A stretch of DNA of 33,568 nt from a plasmid: NCBI RefSeq assembly GCF_988242995.1, contig NZ_OZ547045.1; one strand, given 5' to 3'. The notes beneath the pieces are model-generated. The model did no database searches, had not been told where the DNA came from, and was given only the letters and a program-made list of their open reading frames with translations. Below, one piece after another: positions 9,712-25,160 of the stretch (position 1 is its first letter; each line of letters opens with the position of its first letter). The translations under genes and the position numbers were made by a program.

Positions 9712-10026
9712 ATGAAACTTAAAAGCATGATCTTTACCGCCGCTCTTTTACTGACAGGTTGCGCCAGTCAATCACAGGTTGAGCAGCTAACCAAGCAGGT
9801 GAACACGCTCAAAACAGATATGTATAACCTACAGATTCAACAGCGTAACGATACTAAGGCACTTCAGCGCGAGGTACAGAAATCTCGCCCAATCGGTGTT
9901 TGCTACCTTGACGGCCAGCCCTATTCACAGGGAGCGGTCATTGCTGGCCGCATTTGCGCCAGCAATGGCGTTATTGTCAACGACAGGCCCGCAGAAGTTT
10001 CATGGCAGGTTTATCACCGCCGCTAA
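9712..10026 (+). CDS. Lipoprotein with an Lpp-like coiled N-terminus and a Cys-containing C-terminal domain
   Basis: 104 aa with lipobox LLTGC. Followed by a strong terminator. Confidence 0.65.
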   Translation: MKLKSMIFTAALLLTGCASQSQVEQLTKQVNTLKTDMYNLQIQQRNDTKALQREVQKSRPIGVCYLDGQPYSQGAVIAGRICASNGVIVNDRPAEVSWQVYHRR

Positions 10027-10035
10027 CAGCAAATC

Positions 10036-10057
10036 CGGGGCTTCGGCCCCGTTTTTT
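10036..10057 (+). terminator. Rho-independent terminator
   Basis: CGGGGC-TTCG-GCCCCG followed by TTTTTT. Confidence 0.8.
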
Positions 10058-10071
10058 ATGGTACAGGTAGC

Positions 10072-10725
10072 ATGGACATACTTTCTCTTTTCCCGTCTAA
10101 CCTCATCGCATTATGGGCCGTCTCATTCGGTTTTCTGGCCGTCCTGTATTGGTGGAAAGTCACCGGCAGAAAACGCAGACACAAGCGCAAACAGCAACAG
10201 GCCCGGCGTGTACTCGCAAAAATTCAGACTCTACCGGGGTTCGGCTACAAGATCGCGTATCTCAGAAAGATAGACCCTTTCACCTTTGAAGAATTATTAC
10301 TGGAGGGGTTTGAATCGCATGGCTTCAGAACTATCAGAAACAAGCGCTATACCGGCGATGGAGGCATTGACGGCCAGGTAATCATTGGAAAGGATCGCTA
10401 TCTCATCCAGGCCAAACGCTATGGCGGTCATATCGCTTTACAGCACGTTCAGGAGTTCGATAAGTTGCTTAAACGTCATAATTGTCGCGGTCTGTTTTGC
10501 CATACCGGAAAAACCGGCGCAGGTTCAAAATCAGTTAGCCTTGCCAGTGATCGGATGGAGATTATCAGCGGCCAGCGCCTTATTGATTTACTCACGCCCG
10601 GCAGCTCCTTCACCATCGCAACCGCACCGCAGACAATGATGAGGCGTACCGCAGCAACGCGAGGAACGAACACCATTGTCGAGGAAGCGGATAAAGAAAC
10701 AACCAACAGCATGAGAGTTAATTAA
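10072..10725 (+). CDS. Membrane-anchored Mrr_cat (PD-(D/E)xK restriction-endonuclease-like) protein
   Basis: 217 aa with an N-terminal TM helix and a basic stretch. FTFEELLLEGFESHGF...YTGDGGIDGQVIIGKDRYLIQAKRYGGHI matches the Mrr catalytic-domain pattern (D...Q-x-K). Confidence 0.75.
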   Translation: MDILSLFPSNLIALWAVSFGFLAVLYWWKVTGRKRRHKRKQQQARRVLAKIQTLPGFGYKIAYLRKIDPFTFEELLLEGFESHGFRTIRNKRYTGDGGIDGQVIIGKDRYLIQAKRYGGHIALQHVQEFDKLLKRHNCRGLFCHTGKTGAGSKSVSLASDRMEIISGQRLIDLLTPGSSFTIATAPQTMMRRTAATRGTNTIVEEADKETTNSMRVN

Positions 10726-13068: not shown

Positions 13069-13953
13069 GTGACAGATAAATCAGTACCAGCGAAGCAGAT
13101 AAAAACGGTAAACACCGGAATCGCGATTAAAGAGAATCCCCCCAAAGGGGATGATATGGCATTCACCCATTCGATATTGTGTCAAGTTGGCCTCCCCCGC
13201 TCTAAAGTGGATGGCCGGGAGTTCATGAGAAAATCAGGCGATGCCTGGCTAGTTGTCCAGGCCGGCTGGCTTGATGAAGGAAGCGGCCCGGTAGAACAAC
13301 CGATCCCCTACGGCTCAATGCCCCGTTTAGCGCTCGCCTGGGTATCGTCGTATGCACTCCGCAAAAAGACCCGCGAAATACCGATCGGTAAGAGTGCTAA
13401 TGAGTTCCTGCAATTAATGGGTTTATCAGGCGGCGGCAGACAATACAAAACACTACGCGAACAAATGCACGCGCTGGCAGCTTGCCGGTTGCAGTTAGGT
13501 TTTAAAGGTCGTTCTTTCAACGGCCAGCCTGTAGAGCAATTCGATGCCTGGCAGAAAGACGACCAAAGCGGCCAGCTAAGTTTATGGCCGGGCGTAATGA
13601 CCCTTTCAGAAGGGTACTTTAATGGGCTGATTGATAGCGCCGTTCCTCTCGATAACCGCGCTCTGTACGCGCTAAAGGGTTCGGCATTGTCGTTAGATGT
13701 TTATACGTGGCTTGCGCATCGTCTACACCGCATCCAGGGCCGACCGATTAAACTTCACTGGATGAATTTACGGGAGCAGTTTGCGCAAGAGTATATGGGT
13801 AAAGACCCTGACAAAGATTTTAAGAAGAAATTTCTTCCAGCTCTGCGCGACGTACTGACTGTATACCCACAGGCGAAGGTGGATAAAGTCACCGGAGGGA
13901 TATTACTGTATCCGTCTCCCCCACCTATCCCGTTCAAGGAAGGAAAAAAATAG
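13069..13953 (+). CDS. repA: Replication initiator RepA
   Basis: 294 aa with a GTG start and a GAAGGAG SD. FTHSILCQVGLPR... resembles the replication initiator protein A family, as I recall it. An iteron array lies immediately downstream. An alternative start is M30 at 13156. Confidence 0.75.
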   Translation: MTDKSVPAKQIKTVNTGIAIKENPPKGDDMAFTHSILCQVGLPRSKVDGREFMRKSGDAWLVVQAGWLDEGSGPVEQPIPYGSMPRLALAWVSSYALRKKTREIPIGKSANEFLQLMGLSGGGRQYKTLREQMHALAACRLQLGFKGRSFNGQPVEQFDAWQKDDQSGQLSLWPGVMTLSEGYFNGLIDSAVPLDNRALYALKGSALSLDVYTWLAHRLHRIQGRPIKLHWMNLREQFAQEYMGKDPDKDFKKKFLPALRDVLTVYPQAKVDKVTGGILLYPSPPPIPFKEGKK

Positions 13954-14056: not shown

Positions 14057-14400
14057 TTATCCACGTACATCCGACCCCCCTGATTACCGTACATCCGACC
14101 CCCCTTGTCGTACATCCGACCCCCTAGCTTTGTACATCCGACCCCCTAAGTCGTACATCCGACCCCCTTTTTTTGTACATCCGACCCCCTATTTTTTGTA
14201 CATTAGACCCCCTGAAAATACGTACATCAGACCCCCCCTAAACCTATAAGGTGATCTCCTGTAGGTTTCCTGTAGTTTGACCGATAGCACTTAACCTATA
14301 AATTTTGCTTCTAAGAGATCAGCCTGTATGAATGCCCTCCGATAATTTATTCAATAAAATCAGTGGATAAAATAATAAATCGAATAATTTAAGTTCAGTG
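14057..14400. other. oriV region: DnaA boxes flanking the iterons plus an A+T-rich segment
   Basis: TTATCCACG at 14057..14065 abuts iteron 1. GTGGATAA (the box on the minus strand) is at 14363..14370. The stretch 14330-14400 is strongly A+T-rich. Confidence 0.7.
14065..14238 (+). repeat. oriV iterons: 8 direct repeats of GTACATCCGACCCCC
   Basis: Copies start at 14065, 14089, 14110, 14132, 14153, 14175, 14198 (GTACATTAGACCCCC) and 14222 (GTACATCAGACCCCC). Spacing is 21-24 bp. Confidence 0.9.
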
Positions 14401-15133: not shown

Positions 15134-15579
15134 CGCCTCAGAACCCCGTAGAGCCATTCAATCAGAAAAAAGCGGCCTCATGTACAGCTCAACCAAAATA
15201 GCCGCTTACAGAGCCATACAGCGCGTATATAACCAATATCGCCCGGCGGCACCGGCGCTAACGTGCCTGTAGGGGCGCTGGCCGCGCTGCGGCCATCCCC
15301 CCAACACCCGGATAAATCGCGCCCGGCCCGTCGCTACGCGCCAGCCCGCCCGCTCAACCGGGCCGTTGTGACGGGCCACTGTTCCGGCAGCGGCATCGTG
15401 TGACAGCCCGCTAAAACCGGCTTTGCAGGGAGGGGGTGGGCGCGTCTCCCGGTTTGATCCCGCAAGGCCCGGCAATTTGACCACGTCGCCCAGGTTGAGA
15501 TCGGCGCAGTTGCCTTTTATTTGTCGGCATCGGCGCTAAATTTAAGTAAATTTATCGTACTATATAATGATACTTAAAG

Positions 15580-15608
15580 TTGACTTTTGAGGGGGAAAAG
15601 CCTATACT
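15580..15608 (+). promoter_or_regulatory. Promoter P1 (TTGACT-N17-TATACT)
   Basis: -35 at 15580..15585, -10 at 15603..15608, exact 17-bp spacer. AATGATAC lies just upstream. Confidence 0.75.
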
Positions 15609-15615
15609 TTATTTA

Positions 15616-15690
15616 CGGTTAGCAATGGTGCTGACCGACCCGGAACCAGTGGCGGCAACCGCTCCGGGGAACTTGCGAAGGGGGCAAGAA
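15616..15690 (+). promoter_or_regulatory. Structured leader L1 (hairpin 1 + hairpin 2 + TGCGAAGG SD block)
   Basis: CGGTTAGCA-ATGG-TGCTGACCG, then CCCGG-AACC-AGTGG-CGGCAA-CCGCT-CCGGG, then TGCGAAGG 10 nt before the ATG. Confidence 0.7.
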
Positions 15691-15960
15691 ATGAATTTAA
15701 CCACACTGCTTAAAAAGCATTTTGATATTGAGGAATGTACAGATGTAGACCCTATGGTAAACCGGGAGGTTTACGCCATATGGGTTTATGAAAAAGGCGA
15801 GGATTGCGAGCCGCTTTTAATCCTCAAAGATGCTCAGGATGTTATGGGCGTAGACGGCTGGCTTGTCGGGAATATCTATTCCACGTTGCAACATGGCTTA
15901 TTGCTTCAGCATGAAGAACTGAAAATGATGATCCGAAACGGCGAGATTAAGAGCCGTTAA
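15691..15960 (+). CDS. Hypothetical leading-region protein (89 aa)
   Basis: The ATG at 15691 follows the conserved leader/SD. The ORF-track start at 15580 lies in the promoter. Confidence 0.65.
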   Translation: MNLTTLLKKHFDIEECTDVDPMVNREVYAIWVYEKGEDCEPLLILKDAQDVMGVDGWLVGNIYSTLQHGLLLQHEELKMMIRNGEIKSR

Positions 15961-15969
15961 ATGTTTATG

Positions 15970-16048
15970 CGGTCGGCAATGGTGCCGACCGGCCCGGAAT
16001 CAGCGGCGGCAACCGCTCCGGGCAAACTGCGAAGGTACAGAGGCTAAT
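15970..16048 (+). promoter_or_regulatory. Structured leader L2 (intercistronic, no promoter)
   Basis: CGGTCGGCA-ATGG-TGCCGACCG carries compensatory changes relative to L1. It has a full hairpin 2 and CTGCGAAGG. Confidence 0.7.
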
Positions 16049-16264
16049 ATGTCAGTAAAAGATTTCTCCCCTACCCTGGAAATTAAATTCCATCGTCGCC
16101 GCTGGCGTATCATGGCTGGATGCTCAAGCCTGGCGTCGTTCCGCTCCGAGCAGGACGCGATTGATGCGCTCAATAAGCGGCGCTCATTCTATGAATATTG
16201 GGCCGGTTCTGCCGGTGTCCAGGCAGAGAACACCGAGCCGGTGATAGTCCACATAACCTATTGA
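16049..16264 (+). CDS. Hypothetical leading-region protein (71 aa)
   Basis: The ORF starts after leader L2 and is followed by a terminator. Confidence 0.6.
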   Translation: MSVKDFSPTLEIKFHRRRWRIMAGCSSLASFRSEQDAIDALNKRRSFYEYWAGSAGVQAENTEPVIVHITY

Positions 16265-16274
16265 ACACTTTTAA

Positions 16275-16297
16275 AGCCCGTAAACCGGGCTTTTTTA
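16275..16297 (+). terminator. Rho-independent terminator
   Basis: GCCCG-TAAAC-CGGGC followed by TTTTTT. Confidence 0.75.
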
Positions 16298-16341
16298 GTC
16301 TTTAAAGTACAATTAAAAGTAAAAAATAATGATACCAATAG

Positions 16342-16370
16342 TTGACTTATGGAGGGTGAACACCTATACT
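16342..16370 (+). promoter_or_regulatory. Promoter P2 (TTGACT-N17-TATACT)
   Basis: -35 at 16342..16347, -10 at 16365..16370. AATGATACC lies upstream. It has no GC-rich CUP segment. Confidence 0.75.
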
Positions 16371-16378
16371 TTATTCAT

Positions 16379-16453
16379 CGGTTAGCAATAGTGCTGACCG
16401 GCCCGGAACCAGCGGCGGCAACCGCTCCGGGCAAACTGCGAAGGAGTAATATT
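16379..16453 (+). promoter_or_regulatory. Structured leader L3
   Basis: Hairpin 1 has loop ATAG. Hairpin 2 is full length. CTGCGAAGGAG precedes the ATG at 16454. Confidence 0.7.
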
Positions 16454-17281
16454 ATGTTATCTAGCCGTTTTCGTTCTGCAAATATCCTGCGTTCTGACCG
16501 CCCTCTTAACGATGATCAAATCATGCGTTATGCCCCGTCTATCTTTGCAACTGAAGCGCATGAAAGCCGCTCTGACCGGTACGCTTACATTGCGACCAGC
16601 GAAGTGTTAAACGGTTTGCGTGATAACGGTTTTCATCCGTTTATGGTTTGTCAGACTCGCGTTCGCAACCTGGATAAGCGCGAACACACCAAGCACATGA
16701 TCCGTCTGCGTCATGCCGGGCAAATTAACGGTACAGAAGCGAAGGAAATCATTTTGCTTAACTCGCACGATGGCAGCAGCAGCTATCAAATGCTGGCCGG
16801 TGTATTCCGTTTCGTTTGCCATAACGGTTTAGTGTGTGGTGATACGGTAGCGGATATTCGTATTCCCCATAAAGGCGATGTTACCGAGCGCGTTATTGAA
16901 GGGGCATTTGAGGTGCTGGATCAGTTTGATATGGTTGAAAGCCATATGGAATCTATGAAGTCTGTAACGCTGGATGCGCTGGAGAAGCGTATTTTTGCAG
17001 AAGCGGCGTTAGCACTGCGTTATGACGAACAAAAAGACGGCCCCGCACCAATCGCCGCTAGCCAGCTCCTTGAGGCGCGCCGTTTTGAAGATCGCAAAGA
17101 TGATTTATGGACAACGTTTAACCGCGTACAGGAAAACATTATCCGTGGTGGTTTGAGCGCCAGAACCAAACAGGGGAAATCAACCCGTACCCGCGCCGTA
17201 ACTGGTATGGATAAAGATACGTCTTTAAACCGCGCTTTATGGATTCTCAGCGAGCGCATGAATGAAATTAAAGCCGCTTAA
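16454..17281 (+). CDS. DUF932-family protein (common in plasmid/ICE leading regions)
   Basis: 275 aa from MLSSRFRS... . [28 protein letters not shown]...[27 protein letters not shown] fits DUF932, as I recall it. The ORF-track start at 16349 lies in the promoter/leader. Confidence 0.75.
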
Positions 17282-17289
17282 TGGCAAAT

Positions 17290-17314
17290 GCCCCGCTTAC
17301 CGGCGGGGCTTTTA
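17290..17314 (+). terminator. Hairpin + T-run between the DUF932 gene and ssb (probable attenuator)
   Basis: GCCCCGC-TTACCG-GCGGGGC followed by TTTTAT. ssb has its own SD downstream (AAGGTG). Confidence 0.5.
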
Positions 17315-17337
17315 TCAACCCGAAAAAGGTGATTATC

Positions 17338-17838
17338 ATGGCTTCAAGAGGTGTTAATAAAGTAATTCTGGTCGGCAATTTAGGCCAAGATCCTGAAGTG
17401 CGTTATATGCCGAACGGCGGCGCGGTTGCCAACATTACGCTAGCCACGTCAGAAAGCTGGCGCGACAAGCAGACCGGCGAAATGAAAGAACAAACGGAAT
17501 GGCATCGCGTTGTATTATTCGGCAAGCTGGCAGAGGTCGCCGGGGAATATCTGCGCAAGGGTTCGCAGGTGTACATTGAGGGCCAGCTCAGAACACGTAA
17601 ATGGACAGATCAAGCTGGCGTGGACAAGTACACTACAGAGGTTGTCGTTAACGTTGGCGGCACTATGCAGATGTTAGGCGGTCGCCAGCAAAACGGCTCT
17701 CAGCCAGGTAATAATGAATGGGGCCAGTCGCAGCAGCCGCAAGGCGGCCAGCAGTTCAGCGGCCAGCCACAGAACACCGGCGCAGCGCCAGCGGCAGGAA
17801 ATGAGCCGCCTCCTTTTGATGATGATATTCCGTTTTAG
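17338..17838 (+). CDS. ssb: Single-stranded DNA-binding protein
   Basis: [44 protein letters not shown]..., with a Gly/Gln-rich linker and an acidic tip DDDIPF. Confidence 0.95.
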
Positions 17839-17856
17839 CCCTGATAAATATTTAAA

Positions 17857-17872
17857 TGTAAATTTATTTACA
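17857..17872. promoter_or_regulatory. A+T palindrome upstream of the KorA-like gene, containing TAAATTTA
   Basis: TGTAAAT-TT-ATTTACA. The TAAATTTA core also occurs twice in each CUP copy (for example 18806..18813 and 18816..18823). Confidence 0.4.
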
Positions 17873-17961
17873 GATTTATCTAAATAAATAACCGTTTTAG
17901 AGTTAACCTTCTGTAATTATTGATTAAATCGGCCCGTTTTCGGGCCGTAATGAGGTAAAAA

Positions 17962-18264
17962 ATGGCAGTAGAACGCATTTCCCCTGAAGAATGGCAGCGC
18001 ATCGCACCGGCATTGCGTACATGCAGCCAGGTAACGATCGATATGGCTTATGCCGTACTGGTTGATGGCCGTAAACAAGTAGATGTGGCGTCAGAGTTTG
18101 ACCGGTCAAAGCAAACGGTCAATGCGGCTATCAGGCGCGTTACTGCAATTTTTAACGAGGTTATCCCGGAAGATGAGCAGTTAGAATTTGTACAAGTCTG
18201 GTTGCCGCCAGAGCTGGCGAAGCAGGTAAAAGAAATGGCTAAACCGTATCAGAATAAAAAATAA
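17962..18264 (+). CDS. KorA/TrfB-family HTH repressor (ArdK-like candidate regulator of the leading-region promoters)
   Basis: 100 aa. The protein is colinear with RK2 KorA as I remember it (...TIDMAYAVLVDGRKQVDVASEFDRSKQTVNAAIRRV...). Confidence 0.7.
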   Translation: MAVERISPEEWQRIAPALRTCSQVTIDMAYAVLVDGRKQVDVASEFDRSKQTVNAAIRRVTAIFNEVIPEDEQLEFVQVWLPPELAKQVKEMAKPYQNKK

Positions 18265-18848
18265 CAGGAGTTATCGACATGTGTGAGTACGGATTTAAAA
18301 ACTAACTGAAAAAAATCACTTATGGCGTTCCCTGCGGGGCGGGCTTTCGTGCTGCGCATCGAGCCAGGCAAGCTGTCTCGCCCCTTCGGGCTTCAATCCC
18401 TAACGCCTCCGGGCTGTCGCCCTCCGCGCTCCGCTTGACCCCCACGCCCTGCGCCGGACTTGCCCCGCCTACGGCGGCCCCGCCCCTCCGGGGTGGCTTC
18501 GCCATCCTCTGCCAGCGGCACCGGCGCTAACGTGCCTGTAGGGGCGCTGGCCGCGCTGCGGCCATCCCCCCAACACCCGGATAAATCGCGCCCGGCCCGT
18601 CGCTACGCGCCAGCCCGCCCGCTCAACCGGGCCGTTGTGACGGGCCACTGTTCCGGCAGCGGCATCGTGTGACAGCCCGCTAAAACCGGCTTTGCAGGGA
18701 GGGGGTGGGCGCGTCTCCCGGTTTGATCCCGCAAGGCCCGGCAATTTGACCACGTCGCCCAGGTTGAGATCGGCGCAGTTGCCTTTTATTTGTCGGCATC
18801 GGCGCTAAATTTAAGTAAATTTATCGTACTATATAATGATACTTAAAG

Positions 18849-18877
18849 TTGACTTTTGAGGGGGAAAAGCCTATACT
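18849..18877 (+). promoter_or_regulatory. Promoter P3 (TTGACT-N17-TATACT)
   Basis: -35 at 18849..18854, -10 at 18872..18877. Confidence 0.75.
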
Positions 18878-18885
18878 TTATTTAT

Positions 18886-18959
18886 CGGTTAGCAATGGTG
18901 CTGACCGACCCGGAACCAGCGGCGGCAACCGCTCCGGGCAATCTGCGAAGGTGGGAATT
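18886..18959 (+). promoter_or_regulatory. Structured leader L4
   Basis: Full hairpin 1 and hairpin 2, with CTGCGAAGG before the ATG at 18960. Confidence 0.7.
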
Positions 18960-19268
18960 ATGAATACTTTCAACGCTGACAAAATCCGCTCTGAACTGGA
19001 TGTTTTAGCGAAAGAAACAATGCCCGGTTGTGGTCTTATTTACGAGCTGTATCAGCGTCGTTTGAGCGCTGCCATTGATAACTTTGTCGCTACCCTGCCA
19101 GCAGAACAACACGCCCAGGCATTTGAACTGGCCCGCCAGGAGTTTGATTACCTTTCTGCGGAAGAAATTGCTGATGAAATCCGCCGCGACTCAGAAAACG
19201 GCTATTGCAGCCACGGCATTGATCGCAATTGCTGCCCTTTGGGTTGCGGGGATTTGGACGATTATTAA
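18960..19268 (+). CDS. Hypothetical acidic leading-region protein (102 aa) with a Cys-rich C-terminus
   Basis: The ATG follows leader L4. The C-terminus is CSHGIDRNCCPLGCGDLDDY. Confidence 0.65.
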   Translation: MNTFNADKIRSELDVLAKETMPGCGLIYELYQRRLSAAIDNFVATLPAEQHAQAFELARQEFDYLSAEEIADEIRRDSENGYCSHGIDRNCCPLGCGDLDDY

Positions 19269-19303
19269 TTGACAGGGGGCTATTGCCCCCTACAACCAAA
19301 ACG

Positions 19304-19351
19304 GGCGGCGGCAACCGCCACTATTTAAACAATCTGCGAAGGATATAGATT
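19304..19351 (+). promoter_or_regulatory. Partial leader L5 (hairpin-2 core + CTGCGAAGG)
   Basis: GGCGG-CGGCAA-CCGCC, where the outer pair has changed from A-T to G-C. CTGCGAAGG is at 19334..19342. Confidence 0.6.
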
Positions 19352-19774
19352 ATGAGCGCATACGTGGTATCTGATAAATCCATTTCTACTATCGTTAAAA
19401 CTCTGGTTATTGCCGGTACACTTCAACCTGTCGAAGCTGTTTCTTTTGGTCAGATGATGCTTAATCTGAATACTCATTCCGTTAATATTCGCTATCAAGA
19501 AAACAGCCCGGCGCACCCTTTTGAATACAGCGACCCGGAATTAAATATCCATGACCCCAAAACTCAAATGCAGGTGATTGTCTGTATTGATGAATATGAA
19601 TATCAGTCCTGCGAGTTTGCCGAATACTATGAAACGATGGTGCATACAGTCCTAAAAGCCATCAAATCAGCGCTTATGCAGGCTTACACGGATATGTTGC
19701 CTAACCCATCGCAATGGAAAGAAAAAAAGTCCTATGACTTGCCAGGCTACTCAGAAGCTGAATGGGGTTTATGA
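19352..19774 (+). CDS. Hypothetical leading-region protein (140 aa)
   Basis: The ORF follows leader L5 and is followed by two hairpins. Confidence 0.65.
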   Translation: MSAYVVSDKSISTIVKTLVIAGTLQPVEAVSFGQMMLNLNTHSVNIRYQENSPAHPFEYSDPELNIHDPKTQMQVIVCIDEYEYQSCEFAEYYETMVHTVLKAIKSALMQAYTDMLPNPSQWKEKKSYDLPGYSEAEWGL

Positions 19775-19808
19775 TTGAACGGGGGGGAAATCCCCCCCTT
19801 CTACCTGA

Positions 19809-19829
19809 AGGGGCTACGCCCCTTTTTTT
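19809..19829 (+). terminator. Rho-independent terminator, preceded by a G7/C7 hairpin at 19781..19798
   Basis: AGGGGC-TAC-GCCCCT followed by T7. Confidence 0.75.
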
Positions 19830-19848
19830 ATGCCGGTTTTATGCCGCT

Positions 19849-20003
19849 TACTTATGGCGTTCCCTGCGGGCCGGGCTTTCGTGCTGCGCATCGAGCCAGG
19901 CAAGCTGTCTCGCCCCTTCGGGCTTCAATCCCTAACGCCTCCGGGCTTTCGCCCTCCGCGCTCCGCTTGGCCTCCGGGCTTTCGCCCTCCGCGCTTTGCT
20001 TGG
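19849..20003 (+). repeat. Partial CUP module M1 with an internal 33-bp tandem duplication
   Basis: Matches the first ~120 bp of copies B and C. The unit CCTCCGGGCTTTCGCCCTCCGCGCTCCGCTTGG (19938..19970) is repeated at 19971..20003 with 2 substitutions. Confidence 0.85.
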
Positions 20004-20031
20004 CCTTTCCAGCCGGTGCCAGCTCCGGGCC

Positions 20032-20284
20032 GCGAGGATAACCGGCGGGAGGCGAACTGTCCTCCACAGCTCCCCGTTCCGTTGGATGGTCTGCCGTTCC
20101 TCCATTACCGGTATTCCACACTAGCGCGGTGTGGCGTCAATAGTTCGCTTCGCCGCTTCGCGCTATTGACCCCACCCCTTGCGCCAGTGTTACACACCGG
20201 TTGTCGGAAACGACAAACCCTCCAACTACCCTACAGGTGCTTTATGGCCGAAATTCTCCAACTCCTCCCGCCGGTTATCCTCGC
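20032..20284 (+). repeat. Perfect 21-bp long-range inverted repeat bracketing a structured 211-nt segment
   Basis: GCGAGGATAACCGGCGGGAGG (20032..20052) pairs with CCTCCCGCCGGTTATCCTCGC (20264..20284). Internal hairpins are CCACAC/GTGTGG, GTCAATAG/CTATTGAC and TTGTCG-GAAA-CGACAA. Confidence 0.9.
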
Positions 20285-20348
20285 TATTGCAGCCCTCATC
20301 ACAGCCATCACCGGGCTAATAAAAGTCCTGAAAAGCAAGAAGAAGTAA
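20244..20348 (+). CDS. 34-aa hydrophobic peptide with a Lys-rich tail (type I toxin-like)
   Basis: MAEILQLLPPVILAIAALITAITGLIKVLKSKKK, with an AGGTG SD 5 nt upstream. Codons 7-14 form the right arm of the 21-bp inverted repeat. A strong terminator follows. Confidence 0.55.
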   Translation: MAEILQLLPPVILAIAALITAITGLIKVLKSKKK

Positions 20349-20351
20349 CGG

Positions 20352-20380
20352 AAAGGGGCGGCAAGCCGCCCCTTTCCCCT
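20352..20380 (+). terminator. Rho-independent terminator
   Basis: AAAGGGGCGGC-AA-GCCGCCCCTTT, an 11-bp stem. Confidence 0.8.
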
Positions 20381-21004
20381 GCTCCCCTTGCTTACCCTGC
20401 TGTACGATCCGTGGATTTCACAGTTGAATAATTTTTTGTGGTCGCCGTAATTGGCCCCGCTGCGCCAGTCGCTTACTTAGGGCGTTCCCTGCGGGCCGGG
20501 CTTTCGTGCTGCGCATCGAGCCAGGCAAGCTGTCTCGCCCCTTCGGGCTTCAATCCCTAACGCCTCCGGGCTTCGCCCTCCGCGCTCCGCTTGGCCCCCA
20601 CGCCCTGCGCCGGACTTGCCCCGCCTACGGCGGCCCCGCCCCTCCGGGGTGGCTTCGCCATCCTCTGCCAGCGGCACCGGCGCTAACGTGCCTGTAGGGG
20701 CGCTGGCCGCGCTGCGGCCATCCCCCCAACACCCGGATAAATCGCGCCCGGCCCGTCGCTACGCGCCAGCCCGCCCGCTCAACCGGGCCGTTGTGACGGG
20801 CCACTGTTCCGGCAGCGGCATCGTGTGACAGCCCGCTAAAACCGGCTTTGCAGGGAGGGGGGGGGCGCGTCTCCCGGTTTGATCCCGCAAGGCCCGGCAA
20901 TTTGACCACGTCGCCCAGGTTGAGATCGGCGCAATTGCCTTTTATTTGTCGGCATCGGCGCTAAATTTAAGTAAATTTACCGTACTATATAATGATACTT
21001 AAAG

Positions 21005-21033
21005 TTGACTTTTTAGGGGGGAAAATCTATACT
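21005..21033 (+). promoter_or_regulatory. Promoter P4 (TTGACT-N17-TATACT)
   Basis: -35 at 21005..21010, -10 at 21028..21033. Confidence 0.75.
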
Positions 21034-21040
21034 TTATTTA

Positions 21041-21113
21041 CGGTTAGCAATGGTGCTGACCGACCCGGAACCAGCGGCGGCAACCGCTCCGGGTAATCTG
21101 CGAAGGAAAATGT
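21041..21113 (+). promoter_or_regulatory. Structured leader L6
   Basis: Full hairpins 1 and 2, with CTGCGAAGG before the ATG at 21114. Confidence 0.7.
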
Positions 21114-21727: not shown

Positions 21728-21746
21728 CCCTCTATTTATGTCTTAT

Positions 21747-21771
21747 TTTAGTATCATATTATGATACTAAA
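21747..21771. promoter_or_regulatory. Perfect 25-bp palindromic operator abutting promoter P5
   Basis: TTTAGTATCATA-T-TATGATACTAAA. The right half (ATGATACT.AA) is the element conserved upstream of P1-P4. Confidence 0.65.
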
Positions 21772-21773
21772 TA

Positions 21774-21802
21774 TTGACTTATCAGGCCGCAAAAAGTATA
21801 CT
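21774..21802 (+). promoter_or_regulatory. Promoter P5 (TTGACT-N17-TATACT)
   Basis: -35 at 21774..21779, -10 at 21797..21802. Confidence 0.75.
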
Positions 21803-21810
21803 TTATTTAT

Positions 21811-21851
21811 CGGTTAGCAATGGTGCTGACCGTATGCGAAGGAGTAAAGTT
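21811..21851 (+). promoter_or_regulatory. Truncated leader L7 (hairpin 1 + TATGCGAAGGAG; hairpin 2 absent)
   Basis: CGGTTAGCA-ATGG-TGCTGACCG is joined directly to TATGCGAAGGAG. Confidence 0.6.
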
Positions 21852-22043: not shown

Positions 22044-22082
22044 AGCGGCGGCAACCGCTTTTTTATGCGAAGGAGCAACGCG
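22044..22082 (+). promoter_or_regulatory. Partial leader L8 (hairpin-2 core + T-run + TATGCGAAGGAG)
   Basis: AGCGG-CGGCAA-CCGCT-TTTTT, then ATGCGAAGGAG before the ATG at 22083. Confidence 0.55.
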
Positions 22083-22265
22083 ATGTATCTATCTTTGATG
22101 GAACAAGCACGACAGGCAGAGGAATTGCGCGACTGGAAAACCGCCGCGCAACTCTACACCCAGGCGATGGCCGTTAGTCCAAAAGCCAGAACTATGCGCC
22201 AGCGCCGCGAAAGGCTGTATCTGCAACAGCGCATTGAGTTTTGCGAGCGTAATTCGAGAATGTAA
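22083..22265 (+). CDS. Hypothetical helical small protein (60 aa)
   Basis: The ATG at 22083 follows leader L8. A bidirectional terminator follows. Confidence 0.55.
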   Translation: MYLSLMEQARQAEELRDWKTAAQLYTQAMAVSPKARTMRQRRERLYLQQRIEFCERNSRM

Positions 22266-23140: not shown

Positions 23141-23151
23141 CTTTTATTTTG

Positions 23152-23233
23152 GGCGTTCCCTGCGGGCGGGCTTTCGTGCTGCGCATCGAGCCAGGCAAGC
23201 TGTCTCGACCCTTCGGGCGTCAATCCCTAACGC
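23152..23233 (+). repeat. Isolated copy of CUP module M1
   Basis: GGCGTTCCCTGCGGGCGGGCTTTCGTGCTGCGCATCGAGCCAGGCAAGCTGTCTCGACCCTTCGGGCGTCAATCCCTAACGC matches the M1 segment of copies B and C, apart from one missing base and about three substitutions. Confidence 0.85.
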
Positions 23234-23242
23234 AATCCAGGC

Positions 23243-23270
23243 AAAAAAAAGCGGCCCGCATGGGGCCGCT
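23243..23270 (-). terminator. Rho-independent terminator of the stbABC operon
   Basis: The minus strand reads GCGGCCCC-ATGC-GGGCCGC followed by T8. Confidence 0.8.
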
Positions 23271-25012: not shown

Positions 25013-25121
25013 AACTTTCATGCAAGCATGAAAGTGGTGAATGTGAACGCTTTTTGAGCGTTTTATGCGTGTGTAAGACCTGTTTCTCCCTTAAAAAAGG
25101 CGTGTTATGGTATCCCTTAAT

Positions 25122-25160
25122 GGCTATACACCATACGCAATTACGATTTTCATCGTAAAT
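25122..25160 (-). other. oriT core: inverted repeat + predicted nic site (minus strand)
   Basis: The minus strand reads ATTTACGAT-GAAA-ATCGTAAT-TGCGTATGGTGT/ATAGCC. This resembles the R388 site GCGCACC-GAAA-GGTGCGT-ATTGTCT/ATAGCC, as I recall it. The predicted nick is between 25128 and 25127. Confidence 0.6.

Follow-up and report, generated by a model that had tools for sequence, protein, structure and literature searches.

A covarying hairpin module in the G+C-rich part of IncN conserved upstream repeats as a candidate single-stranded DNA signal of the transferred strand

Conserved upstream (CUP) elements were described from the IncN plasmids pKM101 and R46 (Delver & Belogurov 1997, as cited in PMC6289460 and PMC5371602). 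They are repeats that lie, in large and small versions, upstream of co-oriented operons of the leading region, and they carry at the 3′ end a sigma-70 promoter and operator that reach the start codon. The CUP literature accounts solely for the ArdK-binding, promoter-proximal segment (PMC6289460, PMC5371602), where the ArdK site, with a 13-nt consensus (PMC6289460), overlaps the promoter, and inversion and deletion mediated by CUPs have been reported for IncN2 plasmids (PMC5371602). In IncF and IncI plasmids, the leading region holds single-stranded DNA (ssDNA) promoters (Frpo, ssi1–3 and ssp) that are specific for the transferred strand and repeated upstream of establishment operons (PMC9849209, PMC12672017, PMC11541004). 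Small DNA hairpins also stand at primer or RNA starts on ssDNA in the G4/St-1/alpha3 origins, RSF1010 ssiA and the N4 promoters (PMC13037366). Here, we analysed the repeats at positions 15249–21113 of a 33,568-nt stretch of plasmid contig NZ_OZ547045.1 (the window, meaning that whole stretch), and suggest that their G+C-rich part, including a module termed M1, may be an ssDNA element of the transferred strand. The CUP repeats themselves were already known. What is new is the reading of the G+C-rich part as transferred-strand mini-hairpins, and M1 as a widespread, covarying element that is absent from Rfam and common to the Frpo repeats of F.

The initial annotation had reported three large repeats and two solitary M1 fragments, and both the repeat search and the alignments bore this out. 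Repeat families were found in the window at 15243, 18512 and 20668 (300 nt, 99–100% identity), at 18417 and 20573 (99% identical), at 18318, 19850, 20475 and 23145 (M1) and, in five copies, at 15540, 16302, 18809, 20965 and 21734 (promoter and leader). By global alignment, copy B equals copy C at 625 of 643 positions (97%), and copy A equals copy B from position 195 onward at 433 of 449 (96%). As the match starts at B position 195, copy A is without the first 194 bp, in agreement with the ~190 bp first estimated. The G+C content of the repeat bodies is 0.68–0.70, compared with 0.484 for the window and 0.447 for the promoter–leader part, so that the earlier impression of a body more G+C-rich than the rest of the plasmid held. 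The repeats and their predicted promoters are as follows.

15249–15690, + strand: CUP copy A, 5′-truncated, with M1 and the first 194 bp gone and the distal body, promoter and leader kept
18318–18959, + strand: CUP copy B, full length (M1, G+C-rich body, promoter and leader), stopping at the ATG of the next open reading frame (ORF; 18960)
20475–21113, + strand: CUP copy C, full length, 97% identical to B
16302–16400 and 21734–21832, + strand: 'small' CUP copies of promoter and leader only, from the repeat families
18849–18877 (B) and 21005–21033 (C), + strand: CUP promoter TTGACT-17-TATACT, from the sequence scan
about 15580–15608, + strand: CUP promoter of copy A, placed by repeat register

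The plasmid is conjugative and belongs to IncN, with pCFSAN004085 (98.7% identity across the 65% of the query that could be aligned) and pN-Cit as its closest relatives. Its CUP body is ~92% identical to pN-Cit, which PLSDB types merely as IncN and which we take to be the IncN3 reference. Blastn comparison with R46 gave 74–80% identity for M1, 80% for 18442–18503 and 71% for 18688–18785, and all matches sat in the intergenic CUP regions of R46; in the same comparison the promoter part of the window CUPs was unmatched. Thus the window lineage shares M1 and 18688–18785 with the R46 CUPs, but is only 71–80% identical to them in the common modules. The M1 model described below has three sites in R46 (22047, 23759 and 26264), all in the same sense as ccg/ardA, and the two plasmids have the same layout of oriT, stb and leading genes. 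In the window, the repeats lie 4–10 kb from oriT (~25.1 kb), ahead of several co-oriented operons of the leading region, with a KorA/TrfB-family (ArdK-like) gene at 17962–18264, upstream of copy B. A scan for promoters placed them at the 3′ ends of copies B and C, and no promoter-like site was found in the G+C-rich part. R46 alignment, IncN typing, the M1 matches and the 3′ promoter all agree with the identity first proposed, and support the conclusion that the repeats are CUP elements of an IncN (pN-Cit-like) plasmid, each closing with a putative ArdK-type sigma-70 promoter and leader. The remark that only this promoter–leader end had been explained likewise agrees with the literature (PMC6289460, PMC5371602).

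The CUP leader (18878–18959, + strand) is itself structured, with CGGTTAGCA-ATGG-TGCTGACCG followed by a CCCGGA...TCCGGG hairpin, and both hairpins are kept in all five promoter–leader copies. The Rfam 'pemK RNA' model gave a weak match (16.4 bits, E = 2.6) to the CUP promoter/operator AUAAUGAUACUU at 18833–18876 (+ strand), which raises the question whether part of that family may really be a double-strand operator of the CUP type.

We then analysed M1 using a covariance model built from 14 sequences, with the structure read off alignments. With filters on or off, the model gave the same four copies in the window and no others, each of them on the + strand.

18322–18440, + strand: M1 in copy B (covariance model 110.4 bits, E = 8e-17)
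20479–20596, + strand: M1 in copy C (covariance model 110.1 bits)
19807–19825, + strand: intrinsic terminator of the upstream operon, just 5′ of solitary M1 copy F1
19854–19972, + strand: solitary M1 copy F1, directly 3′ of the terminator, with a tandem duplicate of P5 and tail to ~20003
23150–23265, + strand: solitary M1 copy F2, core only (71.5 bits), of the four the closest to oriT, with ~1.9 kb between it and the nick site

M1 had first been taken as a module of about 84 bp. The element is real but larger, ~119 nt, consisting of a ~88-nt core, a 3′ hairpin and a tail; its helices follow each other, in copy B, in the order P1, P2, P1b, Pa, P3, P4 and P5, before the tail GCGCT-N-CGC. The two solitary fragments (first given as 19849–20003 and 23152–23233) both exist, although the first is M1 plus a duplicated 3′ unit and the second only the core. 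The placement of F2 relative to oriT is that of the R46 copy at 22047–22165.

The model collected 109 copies of M1 from 91 loci, in which 93.5% of the cells of the structure were paired, compared with 76% in shuffles and 37–52% when the partners were slid. Compensatory changes on both sides were seen in 26 of 31 pairs (443 cells), and 29 of 37 pairs co-varied when Pa and the tail hairpin were added. Blocks that looked invariant varied as helices in divergent copies: GTGC-TGC-GCAT became GGGC-ATT-GCCC, and CGAG/CTCG became CGCG/CGCG or CATG/CATG. The best explanation is that M1 is a discrete element of seven or eight predicted small helices, kept by compensatory mutation across many plasmid and integrative and conjugative element (ICE)-like families.

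Several other structures or functions for the same DNA were tried and rejected. A tRNA-like T-arm at GGGCTTCAATCCC failed, as CCC→CGC co-varies with the upstream GGG→GCG and not with the adjacent GGGC. RNAalifold proposed that GTGCTGCGCA pairs with the 3′ tail, at long range or as a pseudoknot, but this pairing showed no covariation, and divergent copies keep the local Pa hairpin. A coding body was rejected as well, since the ORFs inside it match no Pfam family and the frame suggested by a neighbour's annotation contains stops. As a separate observation, 53 of 67 unique hairpins have P3 (e.g. 18362–18380) broken by a conserved C·T mismatch (A·G on the transferred strand), and the next pair but one is A·C in 12 copies; the mismatch could be a recognition feature.

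The orientation of M1 was then related to the direction of transfer. A candidate nick region was found on one side of the stb genes, with the coupling-protein and relaxase genes on its other side, and was compared with the R388 nick site.

25121–25136, − strand: oriT nick region GTATGGTGT/ATAGCCA, with the hairpin TTACGAT-GAAA-ATCGTAA 5′ of it

This region marks the DNA below 25121 as the part predicted to enter the recipient first. M1 in the window is in the sense of the leading genes and opposite to the nicked strand, and in R46 the counterpart of the nick region is likewise on the strand opposite its M1 copies. As the nick is on the − strand, the − strand would be transferred and would carry the complement of M1 as written. 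Read on the transferred strand, the loop of the nick-adjacent hairpin (25140–25160, − strand) is itself of the GNNA type and so resembles the loops of the CUP hairpins.

The hairpin loops showed a strong strand asymmetry. Among 124 triloops in unique hairpins, 63 were T-N-C when read on the + (sense) strand and hence G-N-A on the − (transferred) strand, whereas 13.6 were expected from loop composition and GNA on the sense strand was seen only three times. The triloops tolerate any middle base, and 101 of the 124 are closed by C-G. In 66 of 79 copies, the transferred-strand form of the conserved M1 tail is GCGNAGC, and each of the four bases was seen at N. Between 18300 and 21000, 20 C-GNA-G hairpins were found on the − strand and none on the + strand (10 when each distinct sequence is counted once), compared with 1.19 ± 1.07 in dinucleotide shuffles, none of 500 of which reached 20. 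Mini-hairpins in the leading region of R46 numbered ten on the transferred strand and none on the other, and in the M1 flanks of 135 loci there were 125 antisense against 40 sense. The first module 3′ of M1 in the body consists of three tandem mini-hairpins:

18465–18504, − strand: three tandem C-GNA-G mini-hairpins, CCGCC-GTA-GGCGG, CCCC-GGA-GGGG and TGGC-GAA-GCCA
20621–20660, − strand: the identical three mini-hairpins in copy C

This triplet is partly conserved, with compensatory stem changes, in R46 and in a metagenomic plasmid (L125). Among the transferred-strand hairpins are exact copies of the motifs GCGAAGC and GCGAAAGC. Mini-hairpin DNA of the GCGNAGC or GCGNNAGC type is extraordinarily stable and nuclease-resistant, binds the ssDNA-binding protein SSB weakly, and is much weaker as RNA, r(GCGAAAGC) melting at 39 °C (PMC13037366, a 2026 review). 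The hairpins named in the initial annotation were present in the sequence, and its description of the body as dense in hairpins is upheld by covariation and loop motifs, but not by folding energy, as discussed below.

M1 is far more widely distributed than the rest of the repeat. Blastn with the CUP body matched 1,717 plasmid records, of which 1,527 are typed conjugative, and outside IncN the match was limited to the first ~120 nt, i.e. to M1. Its hosts include Pseudomonas, Burkholderia, Xanthomonas, Pandoraea, Aeromonas and others. The element was present in IncN and IncF plasmids, one IncI-gamma/K plasmid, plasmids of Pseudomonas, Xanthomonas and Pandoraea, and proteobacterial ICE-like contigs and metagenome-assembled genomes. 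Pattern scans added ~130 further copies from metagenomes, genomes and IMG/VR contigs, although a 17-mer scan of genome contigs gave mostly chance matches, with only about a dozen loci carrying the second conserved block of M1. According to record annotation or Pfam, the neighbouring genes are ssb, DUF932, KorA/TrfB-like and kleA, which are typical of establishment regions; DUF2958, DUF736 and radC are presumably neighbours too, as judged by eye without a domain search. M1 is in gene sense also in IncN2, Pandoraea, P. syringae and Xanthomonas plasmids and in F. A fixed spacing between M1 and the gene was considered and rejected, as the distances scatter widely around a median of ~190 nt, and the calling of ORFs is noisy in G+C-rich DNA. 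A full-text literature search with conserved strings and related terms found M1 undescribed, Delver & Belogurov 1997 and Paterson 1999 being outside that search.

Two observations on these loci are recorded here. A second conserved block, GGGCTGGCTTGCTGTTCCCTTCAC..TATCACGGCGTTCTCG, follows many M1 copies at 30–90 nt (L137, L143, L214, L040 from Variovorax, L205 and metagenome contigs). About a dozen IMG/VR contigs classed as viral carry a true M1 (L250, L252, L269, L272, L275, L276 and others), L252 with two copies in opposite orientation; these contigs may be misclassified ICEs or plasmids, or phage–plasmids.

In the F plasmid, the model gave two matches with filters off, at F coordinates ~58090 and ~63478 on the + strand, 5.39 kb apart (E = 1.5e-7 and 1e-5), upstream of ssb and of an ORF unnamed in the record, which is presumably ygeA. 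The F-type variant occurs in at least 5,000 plasmid records. Both matches lie inside the ~600-bp repeats that hold Frpo2 and Frpo1 (PMC9849209), which in the coordinates of our F locus (L280) are:

10016–10622: F Frpo2 repeat, with an M1-like module at 10091–10208
15404–16012: F Frpo1 repeat, with an M1-like module at 15479–15597

The ssb-proximal (Frpo2) variant precedes the giant stem-loop by 38 nt, and the stem-loop of this copy, the one that was folded, had a z-score of −6.65. An equivalent giant hairpin in the CUPs was rejected, as their transferred strand gave z-scores of only −0.16 to −2.4. M1 itself differs from the promoter stem-loop in being G+C-rich and ~120 nt long, and the CUP body contains no −35/−10-like hexamers of the kind expected of an Frpo-type ssDNA promoter. 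Judged by sequence, the CUP and Frpo repeats have a common upstream module and different predicted promoter types.

Taken together, these results suggest that the G+C-rich body with M1 is an ssDNA element on the transferred (−) strand, most likely an SSB-resistant start site for complementary-strand synthesis upstream of the CUP promoters, a reading to which we give a probability of about 0.4; folding of the transferred strand in vivo, and priming as its job, are what we infer. Of the three roles first considered for the G+C-rich part (a priming signal on the incoming single strand, a recombination substrate or an RNA), the evidence favours the signal on the incoming strand, as its loop motifs are specific to that strand and match the ones at known priming sites; the RNA option has lost weight. 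The strand would enter the recipient 5′ end first, and M1 and the downstream hairpins would fold, stay free of SSB, and offer a host enzyme a start for RNA or primer synthesis. As complementary-strand synthesis runs in the direction of the leading genes, a primer at M1 would be extended in gene direction through the CUP promoter and operon, which would thus turn double-stranded and hence expressible before ArdK accumulates, and the oriT-proximal M1 copy would cover the stb–oriT segment. Recent evidence indicates repeated priming of incoming strands, and shows that leading-region elements can be starting points of conversion. No primase is annotated in the R46 or pN-Cit records, which also fits this reading. 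Like the single-strand initiation (ssi) signals of G4/St-1/alpha3 and RSF1010 ssiA (PMC13037366), the elements are strand-specific hairpins with GNA or GNNA loops closed by C-G, would be expected to exclude SSB, and are placed where complementary-strand synthesis must begin. Unlike them, M1 is a closed multi-helix module present several times per plasmid, with no conserved CTG and no dedicated primase gene, and no sequence homology between the two was seen, none being tested. More tentatively, M1 may represent a new, widespread class of ssDNA establishment signal, namely GNA-loop mini-hairpins packed into a closed cluster on the transferred strand. ICEs and conjugative plasmids from several groups of proteobacteria (Enterobacterales, Pseudomonas, Xanthomonas, Burkholderiales and others) would have it at the upstream border of their leading-region promoter cassettes, both Frpo of F included, where it would recruit host machinery to start or gate the conversion of single- to double-stranded DNA.

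A number of points weigh against this interpretation. The pair counts come from an alignment fitted to the structure, and most copies were collected with a search pattern that itself imposes their 17-nt 'invariance'; on an unfitted alignment, RNAalifold recovered only P3 and P5. With DNA parameters, the folding energy of M1 was not significant compared with shuffles on either strand, and that of the whole body was no better than shuffled sequence (z −0.16 and −0.19 for the two strands). Folding energy was therefore left out as evidence, and the hairpins rest on covariation and loop motifs. Strand preference was neutral by two measures: wobble pairs make up 2% of the pairs, with G·T 61 against A·C 52 in the model alignment and 6 against 9 in the first pass, and the difference in minimum free energy over 60 elements gave p = 0.12. 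The loop rule has exceptions: in the window, P3 has the loop GCAAG, and in the F variant it is the sense strand on which P3 reads C-GAA-G. In E. coli, DnaG starts at the triplet 5′-CTG-3′. The M1 consensus has no conserved CAG on the sense strand, i.e. no CTG on the transferred strand, and its transferred strand has no −35/−10-like hexamers; thus none of the known initiation enzymes is clearly implied. CUP copy A is without M1. Several M1 copies lie 30–60 nt from a start codon, and copies there are probably transcribed too. Finally, M1 in F adjoins a promoter that already primes, so that a priming role there would be redundant.

The main rival is that M1 is a replication roadblock or timer, in which hairpins of the transferred strand would stall incoming complementary-strand synthesis and keep the downstream cassette single-stranded for longer, as with the ssp2 stem-loop of F. 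The same evidence on structure and strand applies to it, F has been shown to contain a stem-loop roadblock that UvrD resolves (bioRxiv 10.64898/2026.01.09.698686), and the F variant of M1 stands 38 nt before a giant Frpo stem-loop whose activity needs ssDNA. However, the roadblock in F was mapped to ssp2 itself and not to an M1-like element, and the promoter downstream in IncN appears to be an ordinary double-strand sigma-70 promoter with no Frpo-like stem. With a promoter of this type, a delay would postpone expression and not prolong it. A roadblock would suit a position next to Frpo, but not one in front of a double-strand promoter, and we regard it as unlikely.

If M1 were instead a structured RNA, it would act in cis in the mRNA of leading-region operons, as a 5′ untranslated region or intergenic element of the radC or STAXI kind that controls stability, antitermination or translation. 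Covariation alone cannot separate RNA from ssDNA, M1 is always in gene sense, and the copies close to start codons fit a transcript. Copy B follows the korA/ardK-like gene, with no terminator in the scanned 18200–18322, the rest of the gene being unscanned. The radC and STAXI precedents are also conserved structured non-coding elements near the same gene classes, by ssb, antirestriction and DNA-handling genes of mobile elements, and an ssDNA role for STAXI was raised by its own authors (Weinberg et al. 2010, PMC2864571). In contrast, the loops speak against RNA: on the sense strand they are C-UNC-G triloops, which have no known stability, just 2 of the 69 tetraloops there belong to the RNA types GNRA or UNCG, and the conserved tail would be a 2-bp RNA stem. 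STAXI, with UUCG tetraloops that favour RNA, has the opposite loop signature. G·U pairs are not enriched over A·C, and F1 sits behind a terminator, which makes read-through from the upstream operon unlikely. At the gathering score, Rfam gave no match in the window and eight homologous loci, the radC and STAXI models included; only chance-level matches appeared at E up to 10, and ARAGORN found no tRNA or tmRNA. We consider an RNA role improbable.

Still harder to credit is M1 as an ssDNA transcription signal, which would recruit or stop RNA polymerase on a single-stranded template, as an accessory to or an insulator between leading-region promoter cassettes, whether as part of a new ssDNA promoter or as a template-strand terminator. 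M1 is found at the upstream edge of cassettes with ssDNA (F) and double-stranded DNA (IncN) promoters, the virion RNA polymerase of N4 uses GNA-loop hairpins as promoters (PMC13037366), and new classes of ssDNA promoter are still emerging (PMC12672017). However, no stem of M1 contains −35/−10-like hexamers, and the known bacterial ssDNA promoters are long stem-loops containing A+T.

The body beyond M1 is confined to ~100 plasmids of the IncN lineage at 90–92% identity, pN-Cit among them, and is a mosaic in which 18442–18503, 18526–18709 and 18688–18785 are each found in different plasmids. This patchy sharing, and the CUP-mediated inversion and deletion in IncN2 (PMC5371602), could be taken to mean that the bodies are a recombination module or selfish repeat, i.e. 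mosaic junk or cassette junctions kept by homologous or site-specific shuffling with no role in establishment, but compensatory changes in very distant hosts, and with different relaxase types, speak for selection acting on the fold, M1 keeps one orientation with respect to oriT and no common recombinase accompanies it, and this origin is very improbable. A conserved GTTRRRY, the core of integron attC sites (imperfect palindromes with R/L boxes beside cassettes), was not noticed in the M1 alignments, no formal scan being run, and no integrase was found in the annotation of related plasmids. The earlier expectation that such long direct repeats promote rearrangement is consistent with the IncN2 report, and fits the module-level differences from pN-Cit.

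Outside the repeats, a Shine–Dalgarno site and a 34-residue hydrophobic ORF, MAEILQLLPPVILAIAALITAITGLIKVLKSKKK, lie at 20244–20348 (+ strand) between F1 and CUP copy C, followed by a strong hairpin at 20350–20377. The ORF is identical in pCFSAN004085 and in a metagenomic IncN-like contig and matches no Pfam or NCBIfam family; its product could be a type I toxin or a small peptide of the membrane. A DinQ-like toxin is annotated within the CUP regulon of an IncN2 plasmid. Direct repeats of ~21–22 nt (GTACATCCGACCCCC...) at 14089–14196, just 3′ of a RepA-like ORF (13069–13953), are probably replication-origin iterons.

The priming of the incoming conjugative strand, and the timing with which its first genes are turned on, are questions now under study in F and IncI plasmids, and M1 is a concrete candidate for them: a small conserved element with a defined position and strand. 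The proposal is directly testable in the existing F and pKM101 systems, and even if M1 proved inert, it would still be a useful marker of leading regions and of the transferred strand. If M1 does control the conversion of single- to double-stranded DNA, the 25-year-old puzzle of the G+C-rich part of the CUPs would be explained, the IncN CUPs and the Frpo repeats of F would be two versions of one cassette design, and M1 would offer a sequence target for interfering with the establishment of resistance plasmids.

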